Assembly (NCBI RefSeq): GCF_042231735.1
Contig: NZ_CP102577.1
Location: forward strand, 2,783,281-2,847,280
Length of the DNA stretch: 64,000 nt
From: Corallococcus exercitus
Lineage (GTDB): Bacteria > Myxococcota > Myxococcia > Myxococcales > Myxococcaceae
Direction of reading: 5' to 3'
Shown: piece after piece, positions 39,692 to 57,247 of the stretch
Layout: each line of letters opens with the position of its first letter
Numbering within the stretch: position 1 is the first letter of the stretch
Translations under genes and position numbers: made by a program
Notes under the pieces: model-generated
Seen by the model: only the letters and a program-made list of their open reading frames with translations
Databases searched by the model: none
Told to the model about the DNA's origin: nothing

Positions 39692-39708
39692 CCCCGGGGG
39701 CTTTCCGC

Positions 39709-41414: not shown

Positions 41415-44400
41415 TCAGGGCACGTCCAGCGCGACGCCCTGTCCCGGCACGGCCATCACCCAGCGGACGACGTCCGGCTTGCCGCCGCAGGTGACGCGCA
41501 CCTCGAACTCACGCCCCGCGGGCATGGGGCTGGCGAGCGGCGTCTGGCCCTGGAGCACCTGCGAGCCCAGCGCCACGCGGCAGCCCTGGGCACCGGTGAC
41601 GCTGAGCGTGCCCCGGGCATCCGCCTGGGGCGCGGCGTCCGCGAGCGTGCGCAGGTCGATGTGCTCCGACTTCGGCACCTTGCCGAAGCGGTGCAGCTTG
41701 CCCTCCACGGCCGTGGAGACGAGCCAGCCGGAGGGGTCCTCCGGCAGGGCGTTGCTGCCTTCCAGCAGCACGCCGGACACGTAGACGCGCTCGCCCTCCT
41801 GGGCGTTGCGCACCTCCACGCCGCCCTTGGGCAGCAGGAACACCAGCGCGAGCCCCGCGAGCACCAGGCCCACGCCCCCCACGACGAGCCCCTTGCGCTG
41901 GCCGGACGTCAGCCCCTTCCCCGTCGCGTCGGCGGCGGGCACCTGGGCCGCGGGGGCGGCCACGGCGTGGACGGGCGGAGGAGGCGCGGCCACGGGAGCC
42001 GCCGGAGGGCGCACGGGCGCGGCCACGGGCGGCGGCGGCGCGGCCACGGGCGGCGGCGGCGAGGGGTGGTTCCCTCCATAGGCCGCGTGCGTGCCCGTCT
42101 GCGGCGGGTGGGCACTTCCCTGCGGCGGGGCCGCGTATTGCGCGTGGGTGCCCCCGTGCTGCGGATGGGCGGCCACGGGGGGAGGCGCCACGGCGGCCAC
42201 GGGGGGAGGCGGCGGGGCCGAGGTCAGGGGCGCCACGGAGGGCACCGACACCGACGGACGCGCGGGCGCCTGCGGCGGAGGCCCCACGCGCGTGGGCACG
42301 TTGGCGGCGGCCGCCGGGCGCACCGCGGTGGGCGGCGGCAGCGGTGACGCGGGCGGCGGCGCGGCCGGGCGCGACGGACGGGGCGCGGGCGCGGCGGCCA
42401 CGGGCGGGGAGGCCACCGGGGGCGCGGCGACGGGAGGACGTGTCGGATCCGAGGTGACGGAGACGACCTCGGTGCCGCGCTCGGCGGCCTCCGGCGGGGA
42501 GGCCACCGGGGGCGGCTCCATCCGGGGCATGCTGCCGGAACCGCCGCGCACGGGCGGACGGGACAGGTCCGACGGGGCGCGCATGTCGCTGCCGGAGCCC
42601 GTGCCCGGGGCGCGCGAGTGCGAGCCCGTCCCCGGCATCAGCGCCCGGGGGTTGGAGCCCGTGCCCGAGCCGGCGATGGACGACGGCGCGTACTCGGAGA
42701 GCCGGTCGCCCAGCGCCTCCTTGAAGAACTGCGCCACCGACGCGGGCGACGAGGACAGCCGGTGGTGCGCGATGACGGCTTCAATCTCCTCGCGCATCGC
42801 CGCCGCGGAGGGCGTGCGGCGCGCCGGGTCCTTCACCAGCGCGCGCAGGATGAGGTCCGACACGTCCTGCGGGATGTGGGGCCGCAGCTGCGAGGGCACC
42901 GGCGCGGGCTCGCGCACGATGGCCGCGAGCGTGGCCGCGTCGTGGTCGCGGCGGAACGGCAGCTGGCCGGTGAGCAGCTCGAAGAGCACCACGCCCAGCG
43001 CGAACACGTCGTTGCGCCAGTCCAGCGGACGGCCGCTGGCGGCCTCCGGGGAGAGGTACGAAATCTTCCCCTTGATGACGCCCGCCTGCGTCTGCTCCTC
43101 GCCCTGCACCTTGGCGATGCCGAAGTCCGACAGCTTGATGGCGCCGTCCAGCGACACCAGCACGTTGTGGGGGCTGACGTCGCGGTGCACCACCGGGTGC
43201 GCGGTGCCGGACGGGTCCACGTAGCTGTGCGCGTAGTGCAGGCCCGCGGCGACCTCCGCCACGATGCGCAGCGCGTGCTCCAAGGGCAGCGCCATGCCCT
43301 TGCGGCGCAGCTCCGTGAGCAGGCGCTTCAGGTCCGGGCCGCGCACGTACTCCATCAGGATGTACGCCACGCCGTCCGTCACGCCCACGTCGAAGGTCTG
43401 GACGATGTTGGGGTGCGTGAGGCGCGCGTTGGCGCGGGCCTCCGCGAAGAGCATGTCGACGAACTCAGGATTCTCAGCGAACTGCGCGAGAATCTTCTTC
43501 ATCACGACGAACTTCTCGAAGCCCTTCACGCCCTGCTGCTTGGCGAGGAACACCTCCGCCATGCCGCCCTGCCCCAGCCGGCGGATGATCTGCAGCCGCG
43601 CGCTGCCGCCGTGCACGTCCGTGGGCGACGTGCCCCGGGCGCCGGGGTCCGCGTTGGTGGAGCCGAAGAGGTACTGGCTGAGCGCGCGCTGCTCCAGCGC
43701 CTCGATGTCGTCCAGCGGCTTGTCGGTGAGCGGCGTGCGCGCGAGCAGCCCCTGGAACTGCGCGAGCGCCGGAGCCCGGGCGCTGCCGCCGCAGACGGGG
43801 CACACGCGGTCCAGGGTGCCCTTGGCGCGCAGCACCTCCAGGTACTCGTTGGTCTGGATGCGCTGGTGGGTGACCTGGCCGCAGTTGCGGCAGTCGCACG
43901 GCAGCCACAGCGTGGCCAGCTTCGCCGGCAGCGCCTTGGTGGACTTCGCCAGCACGCCCAGCAGCGGCGGCGGCACGCGGCAGAGCACCACCTGGGCGCC
44001 CTGCGACGCCACCTCCAGCACCTGTTCGATGCGCGGCAGCGCCTCCGGCTCCACCGTGCTCACGTGGCAGCAGTCGAACGCGACGCGCCCCTCCAGGCCG
44101 GACGCCAGCCGGCGCACGTTGAGGTCGCCCTTGAGCGTGCTGGCCAGGGTGATGAAGGTGATGTCGTCCTGGACGATCTTCAGGTGCGAGGACAGCTCGG
44201 ACGGCTCGTTCGGGAGGCCCGCGCGCAGGTAGCGCAGCACGGCGGGGTCCACCGCGGAGAACTGCTGGCGGCGCGCGAAGTCGAAGAACTCCGTGGGCTC
44301 GTCCGCGAACTCCAGCGGCTGGGCGCACACGGGGCAGTGGTGCGGCGGGGCACCGCCCGCCTCCACGACCTTGCTCTCCTCCACCAGGCGGACCAGCCGC

Positions 44401-44753
44401 AGCCGGTCCTCCTTGCAGAAGCGGCACGAGTACGGCGCCAGCAGCGAGAGCACGCGCGCGACGCCCGCGAAGCCCTCCACCATGTTGAGCTGATCCACCA
44501 CCACCGGCGGTGCGTTGACGACGTACAGCCCCGACACGCCCTGCGGCGGGTGGCCGGCGAACTCAATCCACCGGCGGACCCCGAAGGAGCTGATGCGCTC
44601 CACCAGCCCCAGGTCCACCACCACCAGGCCCTGGAGGCCCTTGGACGCTGGCGAGAGGGGGAAGGTTTCGTCGATCACCCCGGCCACGCGCACGTGGGTC
44701 AGACTGCCCACGCGCAGGGAGGTGATGCTGGCATTGGAAGTTTGGCTCTCCAC
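41415..44753 (-). CDS. membrane Ser/Thr protein kinase with an N-terminal STAS (anti-sigma-factor antagonist-like) domain, two zinc-ribbon repeats, a Pro-rich linker, a TM helix and a C-terminal periplasmic domain
   Basis: The STAS pattern is VVVDLGLVERISSFGVRRW...LYVVNAPPVVVDQL. There are two Cx2C...Cx2C modules. Kinase motifs are a Gly loop (LGQGGMAEVF), the invariant Lys (VVMKKIL), a catalytic loop (HRDVSPHN), DFG and SPE. A TM helix (LVVGGVGLVLAGLALVFLL) separates the C-terminal domain. Confidence 0.8.
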   Translation of the reverse strand: MESQTSNASITSLRVGSLTHVRVAGVIDETFPLSPASKGLQGLVVVDLGLVERISSFGVRRWIEFAGHPPQGVSGLYVVNAPPVVVDQLNMVEGFAGVARVLSLLAPYSCRFCKEDRLRLVRLVEESKVVEAGGAPPHHCPVCAQPLEFADEPTEFFDFARRQQFSAVDPAVLRYLRAGLPNEPSELSSHLKIVQDDITFITLASTLKGDLNVRRLASGLEGRVAFDCCHVSTVEPEALPRIEQVLEVASQGAQVVLCRVPPPLLGVLAKSTKALPAKLATLWLPCDCRNCGQVTHQRIQTNEYLEVLRAKGTLDRVCPVCGGSARAPALAQFQGLLARTPLTDKPLDDIEALEQRALSQYLFGSTNADPGARGTSPTDVHGGSARLQIIRRLGQGGMAEVFLAKQQGVKGFEKFVVMKKILAQFAENPEFVDMLFAEARANARLTHPNIVQTFDVGVTDGVAYILMEYVRGPDLKRLLTELRRKGMALPLEHALRIVAEVAAGLHYAHSYVDPSGTAHPVVHRDVSPHNVLVSLDGAIKLSDFGIAKVQGEEQTQAGVIKGKISYLSPEAASGRPLDWRNDVFALGVVLFELLTGQLPFRRDHDAATLAAIVREPAPVPSQLRPHIPQDVSDLILRALVKDPARRTPSAAAMREEIEAVIAHHRLSSSPASVAQFFKEALGDRLSEYAPSSIAGSGTGSNPRALMPGTGSHSRAPGTGSGSDMRAPSDLSRPPVRGGSGSMPRMEPPPVASPPEAAERGTEVVSVTSDPTRPPVAAPPVASPPVAAAPAPRPSRPAAPPPASPLPPPTAVRPAAAANVPTRVGPPPQAPARPSVSVPSVAPLTSAPPPPPVAAVAPPPVAAHPQHGGTHAQYAAPPQGSAHPPQTGTHAAYGGNHPSPPPPVAAPPPPVAAPVRPPAAPVAAPPPPVHAVAAPAAQVPAADATGKGLTSGQRKGLVVGGVGLVLAGLALVFLLPKGGVEVRNAQEGERVYVSGVLLEGSNALPEDPSGWLVSTAVEGKLHRFGKVPKSEHIDLRTLADAAPQADARGTLSVTGAQGCRVALGSQVLQGQTPLASPMPAGREFEVRVTCGGKPDVVRWVMAVPGQGVALDVP
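41950..42215 (-). repeat. in-frame tandem nucleotide repeats encoding a Pro/Ala/Val-rich linker of the kinase
   Basis: A perfect 21-bp tandem repeat (gcggccacgggcggcggcggc, twice, at 42019-42060) and near-repeats (ggccacggggggaggcg, twice, around 42171-42211). Confidence 0.7.
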
Positions 44754-44757
44754 CCGC

Positions 44758-45603
44758 CTACCCTCGTTCCAGACAGAACAGCAGCGACTTGGGCTGCGCG
44801 GCCCGGCGGCGCGCGTCCCCCAGGTCCACCGCGCAGGCGAACTGGGTCCGCTTCCCCGGAGTCACCCGCACCGCGACCGCGTCGCTGTGCTCCAGGATGC
44901 GCCGCAGACCCAGGCCCGCGCCACCACCCGAAGCATCCACCTGCGCCTTCTCACCCCACGCCTTCACCACCCGCACCAGCGGTGACACCGACAGGCGGCC
45001 GAAGCGATCCGTCGCCTCCAGCCAGGCCCGGCCGTCCGCCACCGCCCAGGACAGCAGGCAGCGATCCTCCTCCGCCACCGACTGCACCTGTCCGCGCCGG
45101 TGGGCGTACTTCGGCTCGCCGCCCGCGTCCACCGGCGCGTCGAGCAGTGCGTTCACACCAATCTCATGGACGACATCCGCCACCCGGCTGGCCGCCGCCT
45201 TGGAGCCGCCGGCCTGGAGGACGCCTTCCGCCGCGCGCTCCCCCGCCGCCGTCACCTCCGCGACACTGCCCAGCCACGCCACCGACGTGGCGGCTTCCCG
45301 GGGAATCATGGGCTCGCCGCGCAGGAGCGCGCCGAGCAGCCGCGCCTCCCAGGCGGACGGCTGGCCGCCCTCACCGCGCGTGGCCAGGAGCAGCGCCGGG
45401 GGCTGCCGCTCCAGGAGCGCCGCGTGGGCGGGGGTGAACCGCCCGTCGAACAGCACCAGGTGCGGCGCCGCGTCGTCACCGCGCCCCAAAAGGACGCCGT
45501 CCCGGGCCAGCACCCCGGAGGCCTTCTCCAGCGCCTCCGGCGTGAGCGTCGTGTCCGGCGTCAACTTCAGGGGGGCATCCTTCACGGCGGCGACGGTATC
45601 CAC
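44758..45603 (-). CDS. two-domain protein with a C-terminal GHKL ATPase resembling RsbW/SpoIIAB (anti-sigma factor / protein serine kinase)
   Basis: N-box-like (VHEIGVNALLDA), D/G1-like (VADGRAWL), G2 (SGGGAGLGLRRIL) and a following beta strand (AVAVRVTPGKRTQFACAV), in the same order as RsbW. 4 nt from the kinase gene. Confidence 0.5.
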   Translation of the reverse strand: MDTVAAVKDAPLKLTPDTTLTPEALEKASGVLARDGVLLGRGDDAAPHLVLFDGRFTPAHAALLERQPPALLLATRGEGGQPSAWEARLLGALLRGEPMIPREAATSVAWLGSVAEVTAAGERAAEGVLQAGGSKAAASRVADVVHEIGVNALLDAPVDAGGEPKYAHRRGQVQSVAEEDRCLLSWAVADGRAWLEATDRFGRLSVSPLVRVVKAWGEKAQVDASGGGAGLGLRRILEHSDAVAVRVTPGKRTQFACAVDLGDARRRAAQPKSLLFCLERG

Positions 45604-45609
45604 AGCGCT

Positions 45610-48213
45610 CTAATAATGCAGTCGAACTTCGGTGAAGACGCCCAGCGGGGGGGCGGGGAAGCCGTGGGACTCCTCGTACTTCGCGTTGAAGAGGTTGGTG
45701 CCCAGCAGGGACACGGCCACGCGCTCGTGGACGTTGAAGCCCACGCGCGCGGTCGCGGTGATGTAGCTGGGCAGCTTCACGCGGGTGGTGGTGCCGGCGA
45801 TCTCATCCACCACGAAGCCCGGGTCGAAGCGCGGGCCCACGAACAGGCCGTACAGCTCCACGAAGGCGAACTTGCCGATGTTGGTGCGGCCGCGCAGGTA
45901 GACGCGGTGGGTGGGCGCGTAGTCCAGCGGGTAGCTGGCCCCGCCGCCCACGGGCAGCGCCTCGGCGTCCAGGAACTGGTAGGCCACGTCGAAGGACGAG
46001 TTGAGGGCCGGCACCTGCGCCGCGGCCTCCGCCTCGAAGCCCGCCACGCGCGCGTCGCCCAGGTTCTTGAACTGGGACGTGGAGCCGAAGAGGAGCTCCT
46101 GGTTGATGAAGTTGCGGGCGCGGTTGTAGAAGCCGGTGCCCGTCAGGCGCACCTTGCGGTCGAACGGCCAGAAGTCCACCGCCGCCTCCACCGTGTCCAG
46201 CGTCTCCGCGCGCAGGGCCGGGTTGCCCAGGAGCGTCGCCGCGTACATCTGCTGGTTGATGGCCAGCTCCGCCAGCGTGGGCGCGCGGAAGGCGCGGCCG
46301 TAGTTGGTGCGCAGCGTGAGCAGCTCCGGGATGGCGTGGAACACGACGCTGGCGCGCGGGGACACCTGGTCCGTCTTCGCCTCCCAGACCTTGGAGGGGA
46401 TCTGGTAGTTGTCGTAGCGGGCGCCCGCGCCCACCACCAGCCGCTCCGTGACGCGGTACTCGGCGTCCACGAAGCCGCCCAGGATGGTCTGCTTCGTGTC
46501 GTCCAGGGTCAGGCCGGGCAGCACGTTCTGGTTGTTCACCTGGTCGGCCTTCACGTCGCCGCCCACGGTGACGGACAGCTTGTCCAGGGAGAACAGCGCG
46601 CGCGCCTCACCGCCCAGGCGGCTGCGCTTGCCCAGCGTGTCCTCGAGCGCGCCGGTGATTTCGTTCTCCAGCGTCACGTTGCGGCGCTTGAAGAACGTGT
46701 AGGCCTGGGCGAACACGCGCACGTTGTCCGTCACCTGCTGATCCAGCTGCAGGGCGGCGTTCAGGTTCTGGACGTGCTCGTTGTCCTGCGCGGTGTAGTG
46801 GCAGCGGCCGCAGTTGCCCACGGTGGAGATGTTCTGGCCACCGGGCCGGCCGATGTTGCCGTCGGTGAAGTCCGCGTCCAGGGCGAGGGGCCCCACGCGG
46901 ACCTTGCCGTTCACCTGGTGCACCAGCGAGTCCTCGTTGGTGTCCGTCTGGCCCAGCTGCTGGTTGTTGAAGAGCTGCGGGCCGTCCGAGCCGAAGCCGT
47001 AGTAGCCGAGCAGCGCCTCCACCGGACCGCCGCGGCCGGCGACGTTGGTCTGCAGGCGCCACGTCTTGTCCTGGCCCGCGAGGATGCGCGCGTCGGCGCC
47101 CACGTTCTGGCCCTTGGCGATGAGGTCCGCGGGCTGGCGCTCGATGATGTTGATGACGCCGCTGAAGGCGTTGGAGCCGTAGAGCGACGAACCCGGGCCG
47201 CGGATGACCTCCACCTGCTTGAGGTTGGTCATCGGCGTCGTCTCATCCGCGTAGAACTGGCCCGTCCAGGGGTCCGTCAGCGGACGGCCGTCCTTGAGGA
47301 GCAGCAGGCGGTTGGACAGGTAGTTGGAGCCCAGGCCGCGCGCGCTCACCGCCGCCTTGCGCATGGAGCCCCGGCGGCACTCCATGCCGGGGAAGTACTG
47401 GATGGCCTCGCAGAGCGAGAACTGGCCGGTGCCCTCCAGCTCCTCCGCCGGAATCCAGGACACCGTGAGGGGCACGTCGGAGATGCGCTGGCTGCGCTTG
47501 GACGCCGTGGTGACGACGGCCTCGCTCAGCGCCAGGTTGATGTTCTTCTCCAGGTCGTCGCCGCCGCCCAGGTCCGGGCCGTCCAGGCCGGAGAGGCTGG
47601 AGGGCGGAGGCAGCGCGCGGTCCGTGGTGGGCTCCGTGAAGGGCGCGCGGTCCGGGACGTTGTCGGCCGTCCGGGGCTGCGACGACGGCAGCACCGCGCC
47701 CGTGCCCAGCGCCGGCGCGGGCGGCGGGTTGGACGGGATGTCGGTCATCAGCGGCCCGTCATAGGGCGACGTCGAGGCAGGCGTCCCGGGCGAGGCCACG
47801 GGCAGCGGATCCGCCACGGACGGGCCGACGCCAGGGCCGGCCACCGGGGCGGGCGGCGCGGGCGGCGGCTCGGTGGCGAGCACCGGCTCCTGCGGGGCGG
47901 GCGCGTCCGCGGGAATGGGCTCCGGCTCCACCGGCGGAGGCGGCGTCTTCGCGCCCCGGCGCGTCTTCGCCGTGCGCGGAGGCTTCGCCCCCGGAGTGGC
48001 GGCCTTGGCGCCCGGCGGGGTGGCCGCGCGCTTGCGGGAGGCCTTCGTCCGCGTCTTGGGAGCAGGCTCCTGGGCCTCCTGGGCCTGGGCCGTCTCCACC
48101 GCGAACAGCGACAGCGCGCAGACCACCAGCGTGAGGCATGCGCGCGCGCCCAGCCGGCCGGCAAACCCCTTCACCGCGCTGGTGCGCGGCCCACCGTACT
48201 CAGTCGAGTCCAT
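45610..48213 (-). CDS. TonB-dependent outer-membrane receptor with a long disordered N-terminal extension
   Basis: Signal peptide, then ~200 aa of Lys/Pro/Ala-rich low complexity. Plug domain (TonB-box-like ALSEAVVTTAS, RGPGSSLYGSNAFSGVINI) and a long beta-barrel. The start may be 48297. Confidence 0.8.
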   Translation of the reverse strand: MDSTEYGGPRTSAVKGFAGRLGARACLTLVVCALSLFAVETAQAQEAQEPAPKTRTKASRKRAATPPGAKAATPGAKPPRTAKTRRGAKTPPPPVEPEPIPADAPAPQEPVLATEPPPAPPAPVAGPGVGPSVADPLPVASPGTPASTSPYDGPLMTDIPSNPPPAPALGTGAVLPSSQPRTADNVPDRAPFTEPTTDRALPPPSSLSGLDGPDLGGGDDLEKNINLALSEAVVTTASKRSQRISDVPLTVSWIPAEELEGTGQFSLCEAIQYFPGMECRRGSMRKAAVSARGLGSNYLSNRLLLLKDGRPLTDPWTGQFYADETTPMTNLKQVEVIRGPGSSLYGSNAFSGVINIIERQPADLIAKGQNVGADARILAGQDKTWRLQTNVAGRGGPVEALLGYYGFGSDGPQLFNNQQLGQTDTNEDSLVHQVNGKVRVGPLALDADFTDGNIGRPGGQNISTVGNCGRCHYTAQDNEHVQNLNAALQLDQQVTDNVRVFAQAYTFFKRRNVTLENEITGALEDTLGKRSRLGGEARALFSLDKLSVTVGGDVKADQVNNQNVLPGLTLDDTKQTILGGFVDAEYRVTERLVVGAGARYDNYQIPSKVWEAKTDQVSPRASVVFHAIPELLTLRTNYGRAFRAPTLAELAINQQMYAATLLGNPALRAETLDTVEAAVDFWPFDRKVRLTGTGFYNRARNFINQELLFGSTSQFKNLGDARVAGFEAEAAAQVPALNSSFDVAYQFLDAEALPVGGGASYPLDYAPTHRVYLRGRTNIGKFAFVELYGLFVGPRFDPGFVVDEIAGTTTRVKLPSYITATARVGFNVHERVAVSLLGTNLFNAKYEESHGFPAPPLGVFTEVRLHY

Positions 48214-48447
48214 CGTTCTCAATTCCACGAGGGGAAGCAGGGATGTCCGCGGTCCGTGCGCCAGGATCCAGAGCCGGTGCGACTGGCAATCGTCCACAGG
48301 GGCGAGTTTCCGCCCCTGAACGGTGGCGTTCCGCTCGACTTCTCAAACTACCGCAATAACTCACCTAAGGCCAAGTCGTGGCTGTCGATCCAGGCAAATC
48401 ACGCGAACGGCGGCGGGAGCGCCGCGCGCGGATCAGCCACGGCGCAA

Positions 48448-49374
48448 TCAGTCATCCGGCTGTTCAGCGGACACGGCCAGGTCGTCCGCGAACGGCGGCA
48501 GCGCGGGACCCAGTGACTCGGACTGCACGAGCACGGGCGTCTCCACCCGCAGGTCGGGGGCGTCCGCGAGGACGGGCTGGCGGCGTGGGGGGCCCTGGGT
48601 GACGAGCTTGCGGAAGTCCTCGAACTCGCGGCCCTGGATGCGGGCGAAGGCGTCGAACGGGGCGACCACACCCACGGAGGACAGGGACTGGGACAACGCG
48701 TCCCCCCCGCCCTTCAGGTCCACCAGCACGGCGCCCGGCACCCGGACGCTCTTGAAGAGCACCCGCATGTCCCTGGGCACGTGCGCCACCGGCACGAGCG
48801 CGGCCTCCGCGCCCTTCGCCTCCAGCATCTTCACCGCCGACTCCACGTTGGGCACCGGCACCAGCTTGAAGTGCTTCTGGGCATCCAGGTCGCCGCCCAG
48901 CACGACGTGGGAGACGAACTTCGGATCCGCGGGGCCCGCGCCCTTCACCAGCGCCATGCGCTTGCCGGCGAGGTCCTTCACGGTGCCCTTCTGGGTGGAG
49001 ATGATGGCCCAGCGCTGCTGCGTCTCACCGGCGCGCGGCGCGTACGCCACGGGCTGCGCCTTGGCGCCCAGCTGCACCGCGGCCCAGCCGTCCACCACGG
49101 CGAAGTCGATCTGCCCCTCCCCCACCGCCTTGGAGAAGTCCTCGTAGCGGCCGAAGCTCTTGGCGCCCACGGGGCGGCCCAGGCTGGCCTCCAGCTTCTG
49201 GGCCAGGGCCTCCGCGTACTGGAAGCGCTCCTGGCCGTCCGACAGCGTGGTGGCGAGGAACACGCCCAGCGTGGCCTTCTTCGGCGCGGCGGACGCGGGA
49301 CGGGAGATGACAACGGAGAACAGCACGGCGGCGAGCAGGAGGCTCCCCCGCGCGACAAGGGATGGCGTCTTCAC
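48448..49374 (-). CDS. periplasmic PhnD/SsuA-like substrate-binding protein
   Basis: Signal peptide and type-2 periplasmic-binding fold features. It overlaps the TPR gene stop by 4 nt. Confidence 0.65.
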   Translation of the reverse strand: MKTPSLVARGSLLLAAVLFSVVISRPASAAPKKATLGVFLATTLSDGQERFQYAEALAQKLEASLGRPVGAKSFGRYEDFSKAVGEGQIDFAVVDGWAAVQLGAKAQPVAYAPRAGETQQRWAIISTQKGTVKDLAGKRMALVKGAGPADPKFVSHVVLGGDLDAQKHFKLVPVPNVESAVKMLEAKGAEAALVPVAHVPRDMRVLFKSVRVPGAVLVDLKGGGDALSQSLSSVGVVAPFDAFARIQGREFEDFRKLVTQGPPRRQPVLADAPDLRVETPVLVQSESLGPALPPFADDLAVSAEQPDD

Positions 49375-51896
49375 GGCGTCTCCTCCGCGACCCCGGTGGC
49401 CGGCGTGACGCCCTGTGCGTCACCCAGTCCATGGAGGCCCTGCAGGCGGTCCTTCCATTCACGCACCTGGGCGGCGCGGGTGCCCGCGCCGGAGGCCAGG
49501 TAGCGGCGCCAGGCCTCCACGGCCTCGGCGGGTTCATGCCGGCGCTCCTGCGCGTCGATGCCCAGGTTGAGCGAGGCGACGGGCACGGCGGTCTCCAGGC
49601 GCTTCCACGTCGCGAGCGCGGAGGCCGCTTCGCCCTGGCGCCAGTCCACGCACGCCAGGTTGTGCTGCACCAGCGCGTCGTCGGGCGTCGCGGCGAGCGC
49701 GGCCTTCAGCGCCTTCTCCGATGCCCTCATGTTGCCGGAGGCGTACGCGAGCGCCGCCTCGCGGCGCAGCAGCGCGCCGGTGAGGTGGCCCATCCACTTC
49801 GGCTGTCCGGGCATGGGCTTCTTCTGCGCGGCGGTGAGCAGCTTGCGCGCGGGCGCGACCTTGCCCTGGCGGTAGAGCACCCACGCGTCCGCGAGCGCGC
49901 GCGTGTTGGGCCACGCCCACTCCGGCGCCGGGGTGAGCGAGCGCTTGAGGCCGGCGGAGGCCTCCGCGAACCGCCCTTCTTCCGCGCGCGTGAGTGCCCG
50001 GGCGAAGGTGGCCAGCTTCGCCAGGTCCGTGCGCTTGCCGGTGCCCAGGCGGTCCACCGCGTCCAGGTCCCGGTTCGCCGCGGCCGCGTCGCCGGCCTCC
50101 AGCTTCGCCAGGGCCCGGCGCACCAGCACGCGGGGCAGGTTCGCCTCCGCCACCTTCGAGGCCGTCTTGGAGGGCCCCGCGTCCGTCAGCCGCTGCACGG
50201 CGGCGTCCACCTGGCCCAGCTCCACCTCCGCGAGCGCGGCGCCCGCGGACGCCTCCGCGCGCTGATCCGGCTCCTGCGTGGCCTCGCCGGACTGGGTGAA
50301 GGCGGCGAGCGCTCCTTGCGCGTCGCCACTGCCCAGCCGCGCGTAGCCCAGGAGCAGGTGCTCGCGCCAGGTCGCGCCCGGCAGCGTCACCGCGCCCTCC
50401 AGCACCTTGCGGGCCTCCGCGTACTGGTGGCTGTCCAGCAGCGCCGCGCCCAGGCGGCGGGCCATGGGGACGGAGCGGTCCAGGTCGTAGGCGCGGCGCA
50501 GGTCGCGCACGGCGTCGTCCAGGCGCTGCGTGCCGGCGCGGTCGCGTGCGCGGTGCGCCAGCGCCCGGGCCAGCCACTGCTTCGCGCCGGGGTGGCCGGG
50601 TTCGACCTGGAGCGCGCTGCCGTAGTCCTCGATGGCCTGGTCCCACTGGCCGGTGGCGAAGTGATCCGCGCCCAGCAGCATCCAGCCCAGCGCCTGGCGC
50701 GGGGCCATCTCCACCACGCGCCGGTGCACCTCCACCGCTCGCTGGTAGCGGCCGGCGCGGCGGTTGACGGAGCCCAGCGTCGCCCACAGCTCCAGGCTGC
50801 CGCCGCCCGTCTTCACCGCGGACTCCAGGAACTGGATGGCCTCCTCGTGGCGCGCCTGCGCCTGGAGCGCCTTGCCCACGGCGATCTGCCCCAGGAGCAG
50901 GCCCGGCTGCAGCTCCAGCACCTTGCGGAACTCCGCCTCCGCCTGCGCGGGCTGCTTCTGCGCGAGCCGCACGTCACCCAGCAAGAGGTGCGCGGCGGGC
51001 GTCGAGCCCAGCTTCATGAGCGCGGTGGCCTGGAGGTCCGCGCGCGGCACGTCGCCCGCGGCGAGGTACTGGCGCGCGAGGCGCTCCTTGGGCTCCGCCG
51101 CCTGCGGGTACTTCGTCACCAGCCGCTCCAGCAGCGCGCGGGCCTCCGGCACGCGGCCCTCCAGCTCCAGCACGGCGGAGAGGCCGATCTGCGCGGTCGC
51201 GGACTCGGCGCGGCCGGCCTGCGCCTTCTCGAAGGAGGCGCGCGCGGCGACGGCGTCGCGGCGGATGAGGTGCGCCTTGCCCAGCAGCTCGTGGATCTGG
51301 AAGTCGTTGCCCGCGAGCTTCTCCGGGCGCAGCACCAGGTAGCGCTGCAGCCGCGTCACGGCGCGGTTCCCGTCCTGGACGTAGAGGTAGTAGCTGGCCA
51401 GGTAGTAGTGGACGATGAGGTGGTCGGGCTGATCCGCGGCGGCCACCTGCTCCAGCACCGGCACGGCCTCCGGGAAGCGGCGCAGCTTGAAGTACGCCGT
51501 GCCCAGCGGGTACGCGAGCGACAGCTCCGACGGGTTCTGCGCGAACACCGGCTGGAGGCGGGCCACCGTGCGCTGGAAGTCCTGGAGCGCGTTGGCGGCG
51601 CTGCCCAGGCCCGCGGCGGCGTACACGGACTGCGGCTCCTGCGCGAGCGACTGCTCGAAGAGCTGGAGCGCCTTCTTGAACTTCTCCTCTGCCTCCTGCT
51701 TGTCGCCCTTGGAGAGGGCGGCGTTGGCGGACACAAGGGCCTGTTCGCCCTGCACCGTCATGCGCTGCGCCTCGGTGGCGGGCGGCGGGCGGAACTGGGC
51801 GAGCGCCGTCGGCGGGCCGGCCAGGGTGGCCAGCAGGACGAGCGCGGTGGAGACGCGGCGCGGGGAGCGGATGAATGGGCGCATGCGGTTCGTCAC
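49371..51896 (-). CDS. periplasmic TPR-repeat protein (841 aa)
   Basis: Signal peptide, then ~20 TPR-like helical repeats. It overlaps the upstream phosphatase gene by 4 nt. Confidence 0.75.
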   Translation of the reverse strand: MTNRMRPFIRSPRRVSTALVLLATLAGPPTALAQFRPPPATEAQRMTVQGEQALVSANAALSKGDKQEAEEKFKKALQLFEQSLAQEPQSVYAAAGLGSAANALQDFQRTVARLQPVFAQNPSELSLAYPLGTAYFKLRRFPEAVPVLEQVAAADQPDHLIVHYYLASYYLYVQDGNRAVTRLQRYLVLRPEKLAGNDFQIHELLGKAHLIRRDAVAARASFEKAQAGRAESATAQIGLSAVLELEGRVPEARALLERLVTKYPQAAEPKERLARQYLAAGDVPRADLQATALMKLGSTPAAHLLLGDVRLAQKQPAQAEAEFRKVLELQPGLLLGQIAVGKALQAQARHEEAIQFLESAVKTGGGSLELWATLGSVNRRAGRYQRAVEVHRRVVEMAPRQALGWMLLGADHFATGQWDQAIEDYGSALQVEPGHPGAKQWLARALAHRARDRAGTQRLDDAVRDLRRAYDLDRSVPMARRLGAALLDSHQYAEARKVLEGAVTLPGATWREHLLLGYARLGSGDAQGALAAFTQSGEATQEPDQRAEASAGAALAEVELGQVDAAVQRLTDAGPSKTASKVAEANLPRVLVRRALAKLEAGDAAAANRDLDAVDRLGTGKRTDLAKLATFARALTRAEEGRFAEASAGLKRSLTPAPEWAWPNTRALADAWVLYRQGKVAPARKLLTAAQKKPMPGQPKWMGHLTGALLRREAALAYASGNMRASEKALKAALAATPDDALVQHNLACVDWRQGEAASALATWKRLETAVPVASLNLGIDAQERRHEPAEAVEAWRRYLASGAGTRAAQVREWKDRLQGLHGLGDAQGVTPATGVAEETP

Positions 51897-53710
51897 GGCG
51901 TGGGGGCGGGGCTGAATTCGGCGACGATGACGGTGATGTCGTCGCGCTGGGGCTGGCCGGCGCTGTACGCGCGCACGTCCGCGAGGAGCGCGTCGCGAAG
52001 GGCGTCGGCGGGAAGGTGCGCGTGGGTCTGGAGCGCGGCGGCCAGGCGCTGCGTGCCGTAGAGGCGGTTGGCGCCGTCGCGCGCCTCGGTGAGGCCGTCC
52101 GTGTACCAGACGATGATGTCACCGGGGCTCAGCTGCGCCTGGCGCGACGTGAACTGCGAGGCGACGTTCGCGCCCAGCAGCGGGCCGCGCGCCGGCAGCG
52201 ACGCCATCTGCCGCGTGTTCCGGTTGTAGATGGCCGCCGCCGGGTGGGCGCCCGCCGCGTAGTCGATGCTGCCGCTGTACACGTCGATGACCGCGAGCGC
52301 GCTGGACATCTGGTGCTCGCCGCGGCCCACGTTGGCCAGCGTCACGTTGAGCGCGGTGATGAGCATCTGCGCGTGCACCTGCGACGGCTCGCGCAGCGTC
52401 ATCGCGGAGGCGAAGCCGCTGGTGGCGCTGGTGGCGACCAGCGACGTGGACAGGCCGTGGCCCGTCACGTCTCCAATGCCAATGACGACGCGCCGGTCGT
52501 CCAGCGCGGCGCGGAACCACCAGTCGCCGCCGCACGCGTCCGCGGGCACCACCAGCCCGGCGAGCCGCAGCGGGCCCACCGTCACGGCCTCTCGGCCCGG
52601 CAGGAGCGTCTCCTGCACGGTGCGCGCGAGCGACACCTCGCGCTCCAGCTGCGCCTTGGCGCGCACGTCCTCCAGGAGGACCTTGATGCGCTCCGCCATG
52701 TGGTTGAACACCACGCCCAGCGTCGTCACTTCACGGCCCGCGCCCGGCGCCGTGCCCGCGCGGGCGCCCAGGTCACCGGCGGCCAGCTGCATCACGCGGT
52801 GGGTGAGCACGCCCAGCGGCTTGGTGATGCGGCGGCTCTGGAAGGCGGCCAGCACGCCGGCCAGCACCACGAAGCCCACGCCCAGGCCCACGATGCGCAG
52901 CGTGTTGGCGCGCACCGCGGCGCGGTTGGTCTCCTCCAGTTCGTGCAGCTGCTTCTGCAGGTCCTCCAGCGAGTAGCTGATGACGACCACGCCCTTGCCG
53001 CCCTGCGAGCCGTAGTCGAGCGGCTCCTGGAACTCGAAGACGGGCTGGCCGTTGAAGAAGGCGCTGGCCCAGCGGCGCTCCGCGGTGCGGCCCCCGGAGG
53101 ACTCCCCCAGCTTGGCGGCCGGGTCGCTGTCCGCGACGAGCTGCCCGTCCGCGTCGAACATCTGCACGCGCAGGATGTTGCGGTTGTCCGCGATGATGGA
53201 GCGCGCGACCTCCGTGAGGAACGCGTAGTTGTTGTCGCGCAGGCTGGTGGCGGAGGTGAGCGCCAGCGTGTGGCTCACCGTCTGGCCCAGCTCGCGCGCC
53301 TGGGACTGCAGCCGCTGCGTGAACCGGTCCGACGTCGCGGTGAGCTGCGCCTCCGTCGTCTTCGCCGACAGCGCGGCCAGGAGGCCCACGATGATGATGA
53401 CCAGCGCGCCCGTGGTGAGCAGCAGCAGCTGATCCAACCGCAGCCCACGGATGGCCGCCACGTTGGGCAGCTCTCCGGCCTCCATGGGCGCGATGACCGT
53501 GCTCGTGGGCTCCGCGGCCGGCAGCCCCAGCGCCCCGGTCAGCCGGGTGGCCGTGTTCTCCCCGCGCAGGGCGGTGAGGTCCCGGGAGTGGGTGCCCGTG
53601 TACTCCGGCGGAGGGGGCGGGGTGCCAGGCCCTGCGTCGTGGGAATCTCCGGACGCATCGGGGGAATCTGGCACGGGGTCGAGGCGCGTGTTCGTACGGG
53701 ACAAAGGCAA
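51893..53710 (-). CDS. membrane sensor PP2C/SpoIIE-family protein Ser/Thr phosphatase (RsbU-like) with a periplasmic domain and HAMP
   Basis: Two TM helices flank a ~200-aa periplasmic domain, followed by a HAMP-like linker. The PP2C motifs are present (GGDWW, GDVTGHG, VWYTDGLTEA, DDITV). Confidence 0.8.
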   Translation of the reverse strand: MPLSRTNTRLDPVPDSPDASGDSHDAGPGTPPPPPEYTGTHSRDLTALRGENTATRLTGALGLPAAEPTSTVIAPMEAGELPNVAAIRGLRLDQLLLLTTGALVIIIVGLLAALSAKTTEAQLTATSDRFTQRLQSQARELGQTVSHTLALTSATSLRDNNYAFLTEVARSIIADNRNILRVQMFDADGQLVADSDPAAKLGESSGGRTAERRWASAFFNGQPVFEFQEPLDYGSQGGKGVVVISYSLEDLQKQLHELEETNRAAVRANTLRIVGLGVGFVVLAGVLAAFQSRRITKPLGVLTHRVMQLAAGDLGARAGTAPGAGREVTTLGVVFNHMAERIKVLLEDVRAKAQLEREVSLARTVQETLLPGREAVTVGPLRLAGLVVPADACGGDWWFRAALDDRRVVIGIGDVTGHGLSTSLVATSATSGFASAMTLREPSQVHAQMLITALNVTLANVGRGEHQMSSALAVIDVYSGSIDYAAGAHPAAAIYNRNTRQMASLPARGPLLGANVASQFTSRQAQLSPGDIIVWYTDGLTEARDGANRLYGTQRLAAALQTHAHLPADALRDALLADVRAYSAGQPQRDDITVIVAEFSPAPTP

Positions 53711-54046
53711 ACCTGGGAGAGCCCGCGGGGGAACGCGGTCGGGACGGCGCGGACTCTATCGCACTTCCTGATTGACGCGAGGAGTCCACCTGTCGGGATT
53801 TCCCTCGGGAGCGCCCCCTCCTCCGGCCCCTCAGCGGCCGTGCGATCAGCCTCCACCGGGGGTGTTCCCACCCGCGGGAAGCAGCACGTCACAGGGGGAT
53901 GGATGAGTTCCGCTCATTGCCGCGTCGCGCCACCCGGGGGCCCAAACGGTGACGGCGAACACCCGTGACATCAGCGTCCTTGAGTCGGGAGGCCGCATCC
54001 GGAGTATAGGGGCGTCCCTTTCCTTTCCCTTCGAGGTCCTCCGCCC

Positions 54047-55054
54047 GTGTCCCGGCCCCGGTTGATCAAAGAAAACTCCGCGCCGCTTTCGCTCGCCCGA
54101 GAGCAGCTCATCCGCATCCACGACCTGATGGTGAAGGCGCGAGTCCTGGAGGAGCGCCTCATCCAGATGTACAAGCAGGGCCACGGCTACTTCTGGATTG
54201 GCGGCCCCGGTGAGGAGGCGTTCAACGTCCCCCTGGGCATGCTCATGAAGGTGGGCGAGGGCCCGGCCTACGACTACCTGCACGCGCACTACCGCCAGTC
54301 CGCGACGCTCCTGGCCATGGGCGAGGAGCCCATCGGGGCGCTGCGGCAGATGAAGAACACGGCCACGGACCCCTACTCCGGCGGCCGCAACTTCGCGGGC
54401 CACTTCAGCCGGCGCTCGAAGAACATCGCCCCGGTCACCTCCCCCATCGAGGTGCAGTACGCCATCGCGCCGGGCACGGCCATGGCCCAGAAGCGCCACG
54501 GCGGCGAAGGCATCACCATCGTCACGGGCGGCGACGCGGGCACGGCCGAGGGCGATTTCGCCAGCGGGCTCATCTGGAGCAGCCGCCCGGCGAACCCGCT
54601 GCCCATCCTGATCATCGTCACCAACAACAAGTGGGGCATCAGCACCACGTCGGACGGCCAGCACGGCGAGACGAACATCGCGGACCGCGCGCGCGCCTTC
54701 AACATCCCGGCGAAGACCATCAACGGCAATGATCCGGTGGAGTCCTACCAGGAGCTGCAGGCCGCGATGGACTACGTGCGCAAGGAGCGCAAGCCGTACT
54801 TCATCGAGGCGCGCGTGTCGCGCCTGTACGGGCACTCGTCCGCGTCCGGCGCCAACTTCGTGAACGAGGAGCAGGACTGCCTGCGCCTGTTCGAGGCGCG
54901 GCTGGAGCAGGAGGGCGTCCTCGACCGCAAGCAGATGGACGAGGTGCGCAACCGCTACACGGAGGAGCTGGCCGCCGCGGCGCGCACCGTGCGTGACGAG
55001 CCGCAGCCCTCTGGCGACTCCATCTGGGAACACATCTACGCGGAGAAGAAATAA
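54047..55054 (+). CDS. 2-oxoacid dehydrogenase E1 component alpha subunit (pyruvate / branched-chain keto-acid dehydrogenase E1alpha)
   Basis: TPP-binding motif (GGDAGTAEGDFASGL...IIVTNNKWGIST). It may correspond to a two-gene esg/bkd-type locus (inference). Confidence 0.85.
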   Translation: MSRPRLIKENSAPLSLAREQLIRIHDLMVKARVLEERLIQMYKQGHGYFWIGGPGEEAFNVPLGMLMKVGEGPAYDYLHAHYRQSATLLAMGEEPIGALRQMKNTATDPYSGGRNFAGHFSRRSKNIAPVTSPIEVQYAIAPGTAMAQKRHGGEGITIVTGGDAGTAEGDFASGLIWSSRPANPLPILIIVTNNKWGISTTSDGQHGETNIADRARAFNIPAKTINGNDPVESYQELQAAMDYVRKERKPYFIEARVSRLYGHSSASGANFVNEEQDCLRLFEARLEQEGVLDRKQMDEVRNRYTEELAAAARTVRDEPQPSGDSIWEHIYAEKK

Positions 55055-55056
55055 CC

Positions 55057-56112
55057 ATGGCGAACATGGCACAGGCCATCCGCATGGCCCTGCACTACGC
55101 GGAAGAGAACCTGGGCGTCACCGACATCTTCGGCGAGGACGTGGGCGCCCCGCTGGGCGGCGTCTTCACCTGCACCCAGGGCCTGAAGACGGCGTGGAAC
55201 AGCCCCCTGGACGAGCGCGGCATCATCGGCGCGGCCATGGGCCTGGCGATGGCGGGCAACCGCCCCGTCGCGGAGATCCAGTTCTGCGACTACATCTACA
55301 ACACCATCGACCTGCTCAAGCTCGCGGGCAACACGCACTGGGCGACGAACGGTGACTGGGCCATGCCCATGGTGGTGCGCACGCCCGTGGGCAGCGGCAT
55401 CCGCGGGTCGCTGTACCACTCGCATTCCTTCGACGCGACGATGACGCACATCCCCGGCTGGAAGGTGGTCATCCCCTCCACCCCGCTGGACGCGTACGGC
55501 CTGCTCATCTCCGCGTGCCAGGACCCCAACCCCGTCATGTTCCTGGAGCCCAAGGCGCTCCTGCGCGTGAAGGGAGACGAGCGCATCCCGGGCGAGCCCG
55601 AGGACGACCGCGCGCTGTCGAAGATGATCGACGCGCCGCTGGGTGACCGCTCGCAGTGGAAGCCCCAGTGGCCCACGCTGGAGGCGTTCGCGATCCCCAT
55701 TGGCAAGGGCAAGGTGGTGCGCGAGGGCACCCAGGCCACCGTCGTCAGCTACGGCCGCACGATGCCCCTGTGCATCAAGGCCGCGGCGCAGCTGGCGGAG
55801 GAGGGCCTGAGCGTGGAGGTCATCGACATGCGCTCGCTCTGGCCGTACGACTGGGACCTCATCAAGGCCTCCGTCCAGAAGACGGGCCGCGTGCTCTTCG
55901 TCAACGAGGACACCGAGGTCACGAACTTCGGCGAGCACCTGGTCCGGCGCACCGTGGAGGAGCTGTTCTACTCGCTGCTCGCGCCGCCCCGGCTGGTGGC
56001 CGGCAAGTTCATCCCGGGCATCGGCCTGGCGGACGCGCTGGAGATGGCGTCCGTGCCGCAGCAGAACGACATCACCACCGCCCTGCGCAGCCTCTGCGGC
56101 GAGCAGCCGTAG
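55057..56112 (+). CDS. 2-oxoacid dehydrogenase E1 component beta subunit
   Basis: Transketolase-like pyrimidine-binding and C-terminal domains (GEDVGAPLGGVFTCTQGL, RTPVGSGIRGSLYHS). Starts 2 nt after E1alpha. Confidence 0.85.
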   Translation: MANMAQAIRMALHYAEENLGVTDIFGEDVGAPLGGVFTCTQGLKTAWNSPLDERGIIGAAMGLAMAGNRPVAEIQFCDYIYNTIDLLKLAGNTHWATNGDWAMPMVVRTPVGSGIRGSLYHSHSFDATMTHIPGWKVVIPSTPLDAYGLLISACQDPNPVMFLEPKALLRVKGDERIPGEPEDDRALSKMIDAPLGDRSQWKPQWPTLEAFAIPIGKGKVVREGTQATVVSYGRTMPLCIKAAAQLAEEGLSVEVIDMRSLWPYDWDLIKASVQKTGRVLFVNEDTEVTNFGEHLVRRTVEELFYSLLAPPRLVAGKFIPGIGLADALEMASVPQQNDITTALRSLCGEQP

Positions 56113-56226
56113 GCCGCCCTCGTTCCACCGAGCGCGGAAAGTCACACGGGCCGCCGTTCCTCTTTGGAGGCCGGCGGCCCTGTCGTTAGAATCCCAACTT
56201 CCGTGTCCCAGCCCATCGTCCGCACC

Positions 56227-56694
56227 ATGACCCCCGCCCCTGACGCCAACGCCTTCCGTATCCGCCGCGCGCGCCGTGGCGACGCCGAGGTCATGGCCCT
56301 GCTGCTGCGCGAGCTGGGCTACCCCCAGGGCACCGATCAGCAGACGGTGCACTGGGTCATCAGCCATCCGGAGATTGAGATCTTCGTCGCGGGAGATCCG
56401 CAGGACCGCGCGGTGGGCATGGTGTCCTTCTCCCACCGGCCGCAGCTGCGGCTGCGCGGGCGCGTGGCCACCGTGGACGAGCTCGTCGTGTCCGAGGGCT
56501 GGCGCCGCCGGGGCGTGGGCCGCGCGCTGCTCGCGCAGGTGGCCCAGCGCGGCAAGGTGCTGAGCGTGAAGCAGCTCCAGCTCATCGCCCCCATCAACGT
56601 CACCGACGAGACGCGCGCCTTCTACCGGGCGTGCGGCTACGTGGAAGGCGACTCCGGGGTGTTCCGCCACGCGGAGTACGAGCCGCAGAAGTAG
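56227..56694 (+). CDS. GNAT-family N-acetyltransferase
   Basis: Acetyl-CoA-binding motif (RRGVGRALL). The start may be 56164. Confidence 0.7.
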   Translation: MTPAPDANAFRIRRARRGDAEVMALLLRELGYPQGTDQQTVHWVISHPEIEIFVAGDPQDRAVGMVSFSHRPQLRLRGRVATVDELVVSEGWRRRGVGRALLAQVAQRGKVLSVKQLQLIAPINVTDETRAFYRACGYVEGDSGVFRHAEYEPQK

Positions 56695-56717: not shown

Positions 56718-56771
56718 GGGCCGGGCGCTCGGCCCGGGCCCCTTCGCGACAGGAGAGCGCTTTTCAGCGCT
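56718..56771. terminator. two GC-rich hairpins between the convergent GNAT (+) and PilZ (-) genes
   Basis: gggccg-ggcgct-cggccc (56718-56735) and agcgc-tttt-cagcgct (56756-56771). The second overlaps the PilZ stop. Confidence 0.4.
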
Positions 56772-57120
56772 TGAAGCTCGCGATGACGCGGCGCAGGCGC
56801 TCGTGGTCCTCTTCGCTCACGTCGATGAAGCGCACGCCGATGGCCTCCGCCTCGTCGCGCACCCAGGCGACGATGCCGGTGAGGTGGAACTCCTCGCCGT
56901 CCACCACCATGGCCAGCCGCACCTGCGCGCCCACGTCGTAGGACTTGCGCGTGCGCAGGCACAATCCACCGGCGGACAGGTTCAGCGAGTAGGCCCGCAG
57001 CGCACGCGCCGCGTCCTCCATCTGCTCGAAGCGCACCTCGAACCGCGCCGCCACGCGCTCCTCGGCGCGACGGTTCATGTACGGGTCTGGTTCCACCGGC
57101 CCATCCAACTTCGTGTTCAT
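56764..57120 (-). CDS. PilZ-domain protein (c-di-GMP-binding), stand-alone
   Basis: RRxxxR (RRAEER) and DxSxGG (NLSAGGL) PilZ motifs. Confidence 0.75.
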   Translation of the reverse strand: MNTKLDGPVEPDPYMNRRAEERVAARFEVRFEQMEDAARALRAYSLNLSAGGLCLRTRKSYDVGAQVRLAMVVDGEEFHLTGIVAWVRDEAEAIGVRFIDVSEEDHERLRRVIASFKR

Positions 57121-57247
57121 GCGCACCCTGACCCCCTCGGTTCTCGGACCGGAAGTGTCGGCTGGTTTCCAGGCCCGGTTCAAGGGCCCCCGGACGACGG
57201 AACGCCTCGTGTAAGTCCCAGGCTACTTCGACGCCAGGAGTTTCCGG

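Follow-up and report, generated by a model that had tools for sequence, protein, structure and literature searches.

The PF12974 protein AioX signals to the sCache-like sensor kinase AioS (PMC8050422, PMC5908839), and the outputs listed in a review of binding-protein-dependent sensing are chemoreceptors, sensor kinases, cyclic-di-GMP enzymes and Ser/Thr kinases; PP2C and SpoIIE go unmentioned there (PMC8050422). Partner switching with an output other than a sigma factor is known from SiaA/SiaB/SiaC (PMC7647112), and sensor phosphatases of the RsbU type have been described in Chlamydia (PMC11619594). Here we analysed a locus in a 64-kb stretch of Corallococcus DNA (the window; 72% GC, closest protein matches 92-98% identical to Corallococcus entries), in which three adjacent minus-strand genes, referred to as the trio, encode a membrane phosphatase, a large tetratricopeptide repeat (TPR) protein and a periplasmic binding protein. 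We consider it probable that the trio provides the periplasmic input to a signalling module conserved in myxobacteria, the cytoplasmic half of which is a partner switch ending in a Hanks-type Ser/Thr kinase. Together with the genes downstream, the trio makes up a six-gene module of two transcription units and not a single unit (Table 1).

The trio had been noticed before in a sequence-only reading, and its coordinates were matched exactly on the minus strand. In DNA of 72% GC, the third-position GC of 0.93-0.95 in all three reading frames marks them as the coding frames, and both junctions (phosphatase/TPR and TPR/binding protein) are GTGA start/stop overlaps of 4 nt, as had been read. The topology then proposed for the phosphatase, with two transmembrane (TM) helices, a periplasmic domain, HAMP and a cytoplasmic PP2C/SpoIIE domain, agrees with the Pfam domains found, a HAMP match at amino acids (aa) 292-342 (E 4e-9) and a SpoIIE match at aa 404-599, whose 133.6 bits (E 1e-38) exceed the cut-off of 25. 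It agrees also with two hydrophobic segments, at about aa 94-116 and 271-291, placed around a domain of ~150 aa. Among 30 homologues the metal-binding motifs CGGDWW, GDVTGHG, TDG and DDIT are invariant, and so are residues D396, D414, G417-H418-G419, D538-G539 and D590-D591. The protein is thereby predicted to be an N-in, two-TM, HAMP-coupled enzyme of the SpoIIE family with intact metal-binding motifs. Its best NCBIfam match was the SiaA equivalog NF038263, with 87.6 bits well short of the cut-off of 700, so that it does not count as an orthologue of SiaA.

For the periplasmic domain of the phosphatase, a single Cache/PDC fold is probable. Matches of the window protein to the Cache clan stayed outside the thresholds (dCache_1, E 6e-5; sCache_4, 22.0 bits against 22.1). 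The same region matched SMP_2 in 12 and sCache_4 in seven of the 30 homologues, and the phosphatase of a distant locus with the same trio (L058) gave a clear sCache_3_2 match (E <= 1e-5). Across genera the domain is 50-83% identical and is conserved about as well as the catalytic domain.

The proposed cytoplasmic half of the module is found in a second unit (48213-41415), comprising three tightly packed minus-strand genes that follow the trio after a gap of 234 nt from the binding-protein stop to the ATG of a TonB-dependent receptor. Behind the receptor gene lie the genes for a cytoplasmic 281-aa protein and for a membrane-anchored Hanks Ser/Thr kinase (STK). The neighbouring operon had been called partner-switching-like in the sequence-only reading, and this was borne out by the SpoIIAB/RsbW/SiaB-type kinase and the STAS-bearing Ser/Thr kinase encoded there. 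The former is the 281-aa protein, which consists of a GHKL kinase region (aa ~110-281) and an additional alpha/beta N-domain of ~110 aa and which was found to belong to the GHKL Ser kinases of the anti-sigma (RsbW/SpoIIAB) class. This kinase and the STAS domains were identified by a fold search and by Pfam scans of each orthologue; profile searches of PDB sequences with the 281-aa protein and with the STK N-terminus returned noise only (nanobody, zinc fingers).

In the STK, the kinase domain itself is clear (Pkinase, E 4e-42). The N-terminus is a duplication, in which a STAS domain followed by a CxxC...CxxC zinc ribbon occurs twice (internal repeat, E 6e-6), and the eight Cys residues of the CxxC pairs are invariant in 18 orthologues. 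In the window copy STAS is sub-threshold (21.1 bits against 29.2), whereas among the orthologues STAS_2 was detected in 17 of the 18 (best E 5e-8) and STAS in 14 (3e-8). The first domain, STAS1, carries the motif R-I-S-S-F-G-V-R, of which S56 is invariant and position 55, as S or T, nearly so in the 18 orthologues. We take this motif to be the counterpart of DSSG, the phospho-Ser motif known from STAS proteins of the SpoIIAA type, and the pair Ser55-Ser56 is predicted to be the phosphorylation site of the switch. The residue of STAS2 opposite the phospho-Ser of STAS1 is a conserved Glu (V-E-P-E-A; 44050-44060, minus strand; STK aa ~232-236), which could act as a built-in phosphomimic. At its other end, beyond the TM segment, the STK has an extracytoplasmic C-domain of ~130 aa (aa ~979-1112; 41415-41800, minus strand), for which no Pfam family match was found and which showed 33-54% identity in separate alignments. 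This domain puts part of the output kinase into the compartment of the TPR and binding proteins. Phosphatase, 281-aa kinase and phosphorylatable STAS domain are, as far as their sequences predict, a partner-switch triad in which the STAS is fused to a Ser/Thr-kinase output. No sigma factor family was found among the genes scanned from 34480 to 60855; the STAS is instead covalently fused to the Hanks kinase.

A common function is supported by the conservation of linkage, which was surveyed with one genome per species. Orthologues of all three trio proteins were found in 51 genomes, and the 51 loci belong nearly all to Myxococcaceae and Archangiaceae, with a few from uncultured lineages, among them one genome of Polyangiaceae. 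Wherever a Cystobacterineae contig is long enough, all six genes occur in the same order in essentially every locus. Furthermore, over the 51 genomes the six genes remain linked through three differing rearrangements. In L047 and L049 the receptor, the 281-aa kinase and (in L047) the STK are located divergently upstream of the trio; in L051 the order is receptor, phosphatase, TPR protein, binding protein, 281-aa kinase and STK; and in L054-L056 the 281-aa kinase and the STK lie divergently beside the trio, a five-gene set with no receptor in between. Judged by gene content and order, the module appears to be widely conserved in Myxococcota.

Paralogues of the switch genes were also seen. Two further STAS-Hanks kinase paralogues are carried by L051, and in three distant loci a gene or gene pair that resembles the kinase (281-aa protein, aa ~136-254) and STAS1 with its zinc ribbon (aa ~21-159) stands beside the trio. 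Such paralogous kinase/STAS modules without a Hanks kinase are located at 11423-12445 of L047, 6857-7804 of L049 and 20235-21239 of L053 (all minus strand), the last being a paralogous GHKL+STAS gene.

More remote relatives were collected by searching the binding-protein profile against 1.84 billion representative proteins. The clade proved small, with 360 matches at E <= 1e-3, of which 36 reached E <= 1e-30. In L058 (57% GC), where the phosphatase is 28% and the binding protein 31% identical to the window proteins, the genes for a sCache_3_2-HAMP-SpoIIE protein, a TPR protein of 826 aa and the binding protein follow one another in the familiar order. Directly behind them a stand-alone 162-aa protein with STAS and zinc ribbon is encoded, 35% identical to STK aa 19-161, which argues that this type of STAS is the substrate of the phosphatase. 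In another relative (P0392) the binding-protein gene again lies behind a TPR gene, of 805 aa, and P0504 is a single protein of 792 aa that begins with the TPR region and continues with the binding-protein domain; its gene immediately follows one for a HAMP-SpoIIE protein. We considered that P0504 might be a frameshift read-through of two overlapping genes and set this aside, as the junction appears to lack the signal peptide of a binding protein. In all 51 loci and in the distant relatives the TPR gene adjoins the binding-protein gene. This persistent adjacency and the P0504 fusion argue that the TPR and binding proteins act as one unit with the phosphatase.

Both proteins had been read as secreted, and export is predicted from their N-termini, which resemble signal peptides. 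That of the TPR protein reads MTNRMRPFIRSPRRVSTALVLLATLAGPPTALA/Q (the slash marks the presumed cleavage site), with a basic n-region, a short h-region and ALA/Q; this signal peptide was read by eye, the h-region being shorter than the 19-residue hydrophobicity window. In the binding protein an h-region is followed by ...RPASA/AP. A lipobox Cys is absent from the N-termini of both. The remainder of the TPR protein is covered over most of its length by twenty TPR-type Pfam families (TPR_19, E 8e-34).

The binding protein matches the Phosphonate-bd family PF12974 (43.8 bits; cut-off 27), and its AlphaFold2 model, with a pLDDT (predicted local distance difference test) of 80, shows the two-lobed fold of periplasmic binding proteins. 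Foldseek matched the model to PtxB, BstB, PhnD, ArrX, AioX and XAC2383 (E 1e-14 to 1e-11), from all of which it is about equally distant (12-20% identity), with a probability of 1.00 for PtxB, PhnD, ArrX and AioX. Scores for the PhnD equivalog TIGR03431 (22 bits against 261) and the phosphonate/phosphite model TIGR01098 (29.7 bits against 112) were low. Hence the earlier description as PhnD-like holds for family and fold and fails for PhnD orthology, and the protein is assigned to the PhnD superfamily as a predicted member other than PhnD itself; none of these subfamily scores marks it as a binder of phosphonates. In the profile alignment KGAGPADPK of the binding protein, with its invariant D150, stands opposite DRASTSSH of PtxB, a Ser/Thr-rich stretch that we take to be the oxyanion-binding loop. 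Since an invariant Asp occupies this place, we tentatively suggest that the ligand is not an oxyanion.

The absence of genes for an ATP-binding cassette (ABC) transporter nearby, also claimed in the sequence-only reading, was borne out. No permease and ATPase of the PhnE/PhnC type were found with the binding-protein gene in the 64 kb, an LSGGQ-type ABC signature is absent from every frame, and the only Walker A motif within a genuine gene is that of an AAA_16 cyclase. In addition, Pfam scans of about 40 open reading frames (ORFs), which make up most of the window, returned neither ABC_tran nor any permease family. At 29056-31036 a PHO4 phosphate transporter is encoded together with a PhoU_div protein; as a partner of the binding protein this pair was rejected, being ~17 kb away and using no binding protein.

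A feature peculiar to the binding protein is its C-terminal tail, which is predicted to be disordered (pLDDT about 45-55 in the model) and reads GPPRRQPV ... LP[S/P]F ... E-Q-P-D-D-COOH, with LPSF in the window copy. Residues G261, P267, P293, F295, P306 and D307 are invariant in 20 homologues, and every core orthologue cluster ends in E-x-P-[DE]-[DP]. Because it is conserved in spite of its predicted disorder, the tail is probably a docking peptide. We dropped the idea of a simple tether to the TPR protein, since the P0504 fusion retains the C-terminal motif. More distant members of the clade (P0391, P0400, P0447, P0448, P0452, P0504, P0506) end in [FY]W[VA]P or similar, and the differing motifs suggest docking partners specific to each subfamily.

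The gap between the two units contains a sigma-70-like promoter candidate. Both of its hexamers are largely conserved in Corallococcus, Myxococcus, Pyxidicoccus and Hyalangium in an alignment of 16 genomes and the DNA around them is not; because TTGGCC-N18-TAGTTT is conserved in this way, the second unit probably has its own promoter. A strict consensus scan of 41000-54300 returned no promoter and did not pick up this candidate, and the terminator-like sites in the same interval numbered two, compared with 3.5 expected by chance. A riboswitch or other RNA element in front of the receptor gene was looked for and discarded, as Rfam matched nothing in the window at the gathering threshold and nothing in the gap at E <= 1.

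The conserved ATG at 48213 opens the receptor gene. Plug (E 2e-18) and barrel (E 9e-41) were recognised by Pfam in the receptor. No Pfam family was found in aa 1-272, and the Pro/Ala-rich, low-complexity extension is without a recognisable domain. As to substrate class, every NCBIfam match was far below its cut-off, the best being a heme/hemoglobin receptor family with 176 bits against 317. The plug (aa ~270-380; 46900-47500, minus strand) is 89-97% identical across genera, and this conservation tops that of every other part of the six proteins profiled, including the phosphatase catalytic domain. The sequence-only reading, which regarded the trio as an input module for the adjacent operon, is supported in this respect and was incomplete in that it did not mention the receptor gene directly downstream, which in this lineage belongs to the conserved set.

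From these data we infer ligand binding, protein-protein contacts and an output as follows. A ligand, possibly brought across the outer membrane by the receptor, would be captured by the binding protein, which together with the TPR protein would dock on the Cache-like periplasmic domain of the phosphatase. HAMP would pass the signal to the PP2C domain, and the phosphatase would strip off the phosphate that the 281-aa kinase places on Ser55/56 of STAS1. The phosphorylation state of STAS1 would in turn set the activity or the partner choice of the fused Hanks kinase, which would transmit the signal by Ser/Thr phosphorylation. That the binding protein feeds the phosphatase, as had been suggested before, gains from the conserved linkage, the TPR-binding-protein fusion beside a HAMP-SpoIIE gene and the AioX-AioS precedent, through contacts that we propose here. 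We hold the scheme as a whole with moderate confidence, its partner-switch chemistry with more, and the role of the receptor with less; the latter is the weakest step, since there are lineages in which the receptor gene is not linked to the trio.

Several observations weigh against this scheme. The Cache assignment of the window phosphatase is sub-threshold, and the separate promoter-like element before the second unit weakens the case for co-transcription of the two units. The receptor is missing from the immediate neighbourhood of the trio in L054-L056, and the trio occurs without a kinase partner within 10 kb in L050 and on the contig examined in L052 and L053. The C-terminal motif retained in P0504 argues against a tail that simply tethers the binding protein to the TPR protein. 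Furthermore, a binding-protein gene beside a TonB-dependent receptor gene also resembles an uptake system, in which receptor and binding protein, with the TPR protein as periplasmic adaptor, would import a nutrient to a distant inner-membrane transporter while the phosphatase and kinases regulate the import or are co-regulated with it. PF12974 proteins are mostly binding proteins of ABC transporters, PtxB and PhnD are among the best fold matches, and the receptor, encoded directly downstream of the trio, resembles heme and siderophore receptors, below threshold. We nevertheless regard uptake as improbable. ABC components are absent from the scanned ORFs of the window and from the surroundings of the trio in other annotated loci, apart from a lone ATPase on the opposite strand and without permease in L053; the constant neighbour of the trio, down to 28% identity, is a phosphatase and not a transporter; in several lineages the receptor is not beside the trio; and the DRASTSSH stretch of PtxB is replaced by KGAGPADPK with its invariant Asp.

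The likeness to the sterol binder BstB, which is among the top matches (7t1m; sequence E 2.7e-4, fold E 2.4e-14) and acts beside a TPR-like partner, BstC (PMC10942540), leads to another possibility, namely that a scaffold of TPR and binding-protein fold watches the receptor or the outer membrane, or carries a hydrophobic molecule, with no soluble ligand of the classical sort, and that the phosphatase reads the complex. The identity of the receptor plug across genera, which suggests protein contacts, the fusion of TPR and binding proteins in P0504 and the conserved disordered tail, typical of a protein-docking motif, would all suit such a sensor of envelope status or lipid handling. However, the BstB equivalog model gave only 20 bits against a cut-off of 350, no RND or BstA-like gene was found nearby in Pfam scans of the window ORFs, BstC is a TatT-type protein unlike an 800-aa TPR array (PMC10942540), and the hinged fold is kept in a model of good confidence, compatible with ordinary ligand binding, so that we rate this possibility as unlikely. 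A similarly low probability is given to the boldest version, in which the six genes encode a single envelope-spanning receptor complex of an undescribed kind: the receptor, the TPR scaffold and the binding protein with its tail would pick up a cue from outside the cell, possibly an intercellular signal of myxobacteria, and hand it to the only SpoIIE-type phosphatase of the cell, which would gate a Hanks kinase through a STAS switch.

It could finally be that the two units are neighbours without a common function, the trio being independent of the receptor, kinase and STK genes and the phosphatase acting on other phosphoproteins, for example substrates of Hanks kinases. The two transcription units with a distinct promoter-like element and the distant loci that have the trio and no kinase partner within 10 kb fit such a separation, and whether SpoIIE-like phosphatases oppose Hanks kinases was left open in a phosphatome paper of 2010 (PMC2887360). 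On the other hand, SpoIIE-family phosphatases typically target STAS proteins (PMC11619594), most lineages, rearrangements notwithstanding, have genes for a matching STAS and a SpoIIAB-type kinase next to the trio, and a stand-alone STAS protein is encoded behind the trio in L058. Moreover, the orthologue of the phosphatase, MXAN_4562, has been described as the only SpoIIE-like phosphatase type in Myxococcus xanthus (PMC2887360), and the adjacent kinase/STAS pair would otherwise be left without a phosphatase. Independence of the two units is therefore very improbable in our view.

Table 1. Features of the six-gene locus, with positions in the window
Feature	Position	Strand	Details
Phosphatase gene	51893-53710	minus	605 aa; cytoplasmic N-tail aa 1-93, TM1 ~94-116, periplasmic ~117-270, TM2 ~271-291, HAMP 292-342, SpoIIE/PP2C 404-599
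Periplasmic sensor domain of phosphatase	52901-53362	minus	aa ~117-270
TPR-protein gene	49371-51896	minus	841 aa
Binding-protein gene	48448-49374	minus	308 aa
C-terminal tail of binding protein	48451-48597	minus	aa ~260-308; predicted disordered, conserved
Sigma-70-like promoter candidate	48345-48374	minus	TTGGCC (48374-48369), 18-nt spacer, TAGTTT (48350-48345)
TonB-dependent outer-membrane receptor	45610-48213	minus	signal peptide, ~220-aa Pro/Ala-rich extension, plug, barrel
Cytoplasmic SpoIIAB/RsbW/SiaB-type GHKL Ser kinase (predicted)	44758-45603	minus	281 aa; starts 6 nt past receptor stop
Membrane-anchored Hanks Ser/Thr kinase (STK)	41415-44753	minus	1112 aa; starts 4 nt past 281-aa gene; STAS1 + Zn-ribbon ~17-160, STAS2-like + Zn-ribbon ~185-330, kinase 388-653, Pro-rich linker, TM ~957-978, C-domain
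Ser55-Ser56 codons of STAS1	44586-44591	minus	motif R-I-S-S-F-G-V-R; predicted phosphorylation site

In M. xanthus the six genes correspond to MXAN_4557-4562, of which MXAN_4558 (281-aa kinase) was identified by name and the rest by gene order, with MXAN_4557 for the STK, MXAN_4559 for the receptor, MXAN_4560 for the binding protein, MXAN_4561 for the TPR protein and MXAN_4562 for the phosphatase (homologue P0279 of strain DK1622). MXAN_4559 has been detected in outer-membrane vesicle fractions (PMC4158809), and MXAN_4561 forms the edge of a predicted lantipeptide region, MXAN_4545-4561, in a genome-mining table (PMC4902038). In L053 the trio adjoins genes of the lanthipeptide dehydratase type (Lant_dehydr_N; 1-4993). 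The proximity to lanthipeptide genes is probably a mere neighbourhood effect. In the literature searched, which did not extend to subscription journals, we found only passing mentions of MXAN_4557-4562 and no functional study, no co-mention of 'Phosphonate-bd' and 'SpoIIE', and no description of a binding-protein sensor with a PP2C output, of an obligatory large TPR partner or of a STAS-Hanks fusion as the output of a switch.

Several genes around the module were also identified. Divergent from the phosphatase gene and 336 nt away from it, a plus-strand cluster (54047-56694) encodes a GNAT acetyltransferase and the two E1 subunits, alpha and beta, of a 2-oxoacid dehydrogenase; by position the E1 genes are the orthologues of esgAB of M. 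xanthus (MXAN_4564/4565), encoding the branched-chain keto-acid dehydrogenase of E-signalling. We rejected a link between the module and these E-signal genes, as the two adjoin only in Cystobacterineae and not in the distant loci. Directly downstream of the STK, minus-strand genes (35390-40774) encode a SLOG/LDcluster4 protein of 176 aa, a 155-aa ORF without family and a 1533-aa adenylate/guanylate cyclase-AAA_16-TPR protein. The same genes follow the STK in Corallococcus coralloides and in the Hyalangium-type loci L032, L037 and L039, and they may represent a further layer of signalling. The window also contains three genes of the fatty-acid desaturase family (11079-12386, 27435-28445 and 34480-35370, all minus strand), a PilZ protein gene (56764-57183) and a gene for a DUF2845 protein (59738-60091).

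Myxobacteria own very large sets of eukaryote-like Ser/Thr kinases, the activators of which are mostly unknown, and the locus offers a testable input path for one of them; the orthologues MXAN_4557-4562 sit in a genetically tractable model organism. If the proposed scheme is true, a PP2C phosphatase joins the outputs of binding-protein-dependent sensing and a Hanks kinase those of partner switching. Should the six proteins even form one complex, partner switching would be wired directly to eukaryote-like kinase signalling in social bacteria.

Among known systems, BstA/BstB/BstC of Methylococcus capsulatus resembles the locus in that a protein of the PF12974 fold (BstB, 7t1m, with PtxB the closest solved relative) works beside a TPR-like partner (PMC10942540). 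In contrast to Bst, the locus has no RND transporter, its TPR protein is not a small member of the TatT family as BstC is, and its constant partner is a signalling phosphatase. As in FecA/FecR/FecI, an outer-membrane receptor of the TonB-dependent type is linked genetically to a signalling protein in the inner membrane and to a regulator in the cytoplasm. Unlike in FecA, the N-terminal extension of the receptor is Pro/Ala-rich and of low complexity, with no detectable signalling domain, and Pfam scans of the neighbours returned no family of FecR-type anti-sigma or extracytoplasmic function (ECF) sigma factors.

The input half is closest to AioX-AioS, ArrX-ArrS and XAC2383-XAC2382 of Xanthomonas citri, the last of which reportedly pairs a PF12974 binding protein with the membrane sensor to which it signals. 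In these systems and at our locus, a protein of the PhnD superfamily is encoded beside a two-TM sensor with a Cache-like domain, with no cognate transporter. The output of the sensor is here a PP2C phosphatase instead of a histidine kinase or diguanylate cyclase, a third partner of ~800 aa with TPR is obligatory, and the binding protein has a conserved tail; its identity to all solved members is just 12-20%. The cytoplasmic half has the parts of SiaABCD, RsbU/RsbW/RsbV, SpoIIE/SpoIIAB/SpoIIAA and the transmembrane RsbU of Chlamydia, that is a HAMP-PP2C membrane phosphatase, a kinase of the SpoIIAB/RsbW/SiaB fold and a STAS domain with a conserved Ser/Thr, and it shares with SiaABC a predicted output other than a sigma factor. 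It differs from the Sia, Rsb and SpoII switches in its STAS, which is duplicated, joined to zinc ribbons and fused to the N-terminus of a Hanks kinase, whereas theirs stands alone as a protein and either binds a cyclase or releases a sigma factor. Furthermore, the kinase of our locus has an extra N-domain of ~110 aa, and the switch would receive its input through two dedicated proteins of the periplasm and, in this lineage, a receptor of the outer membrane.

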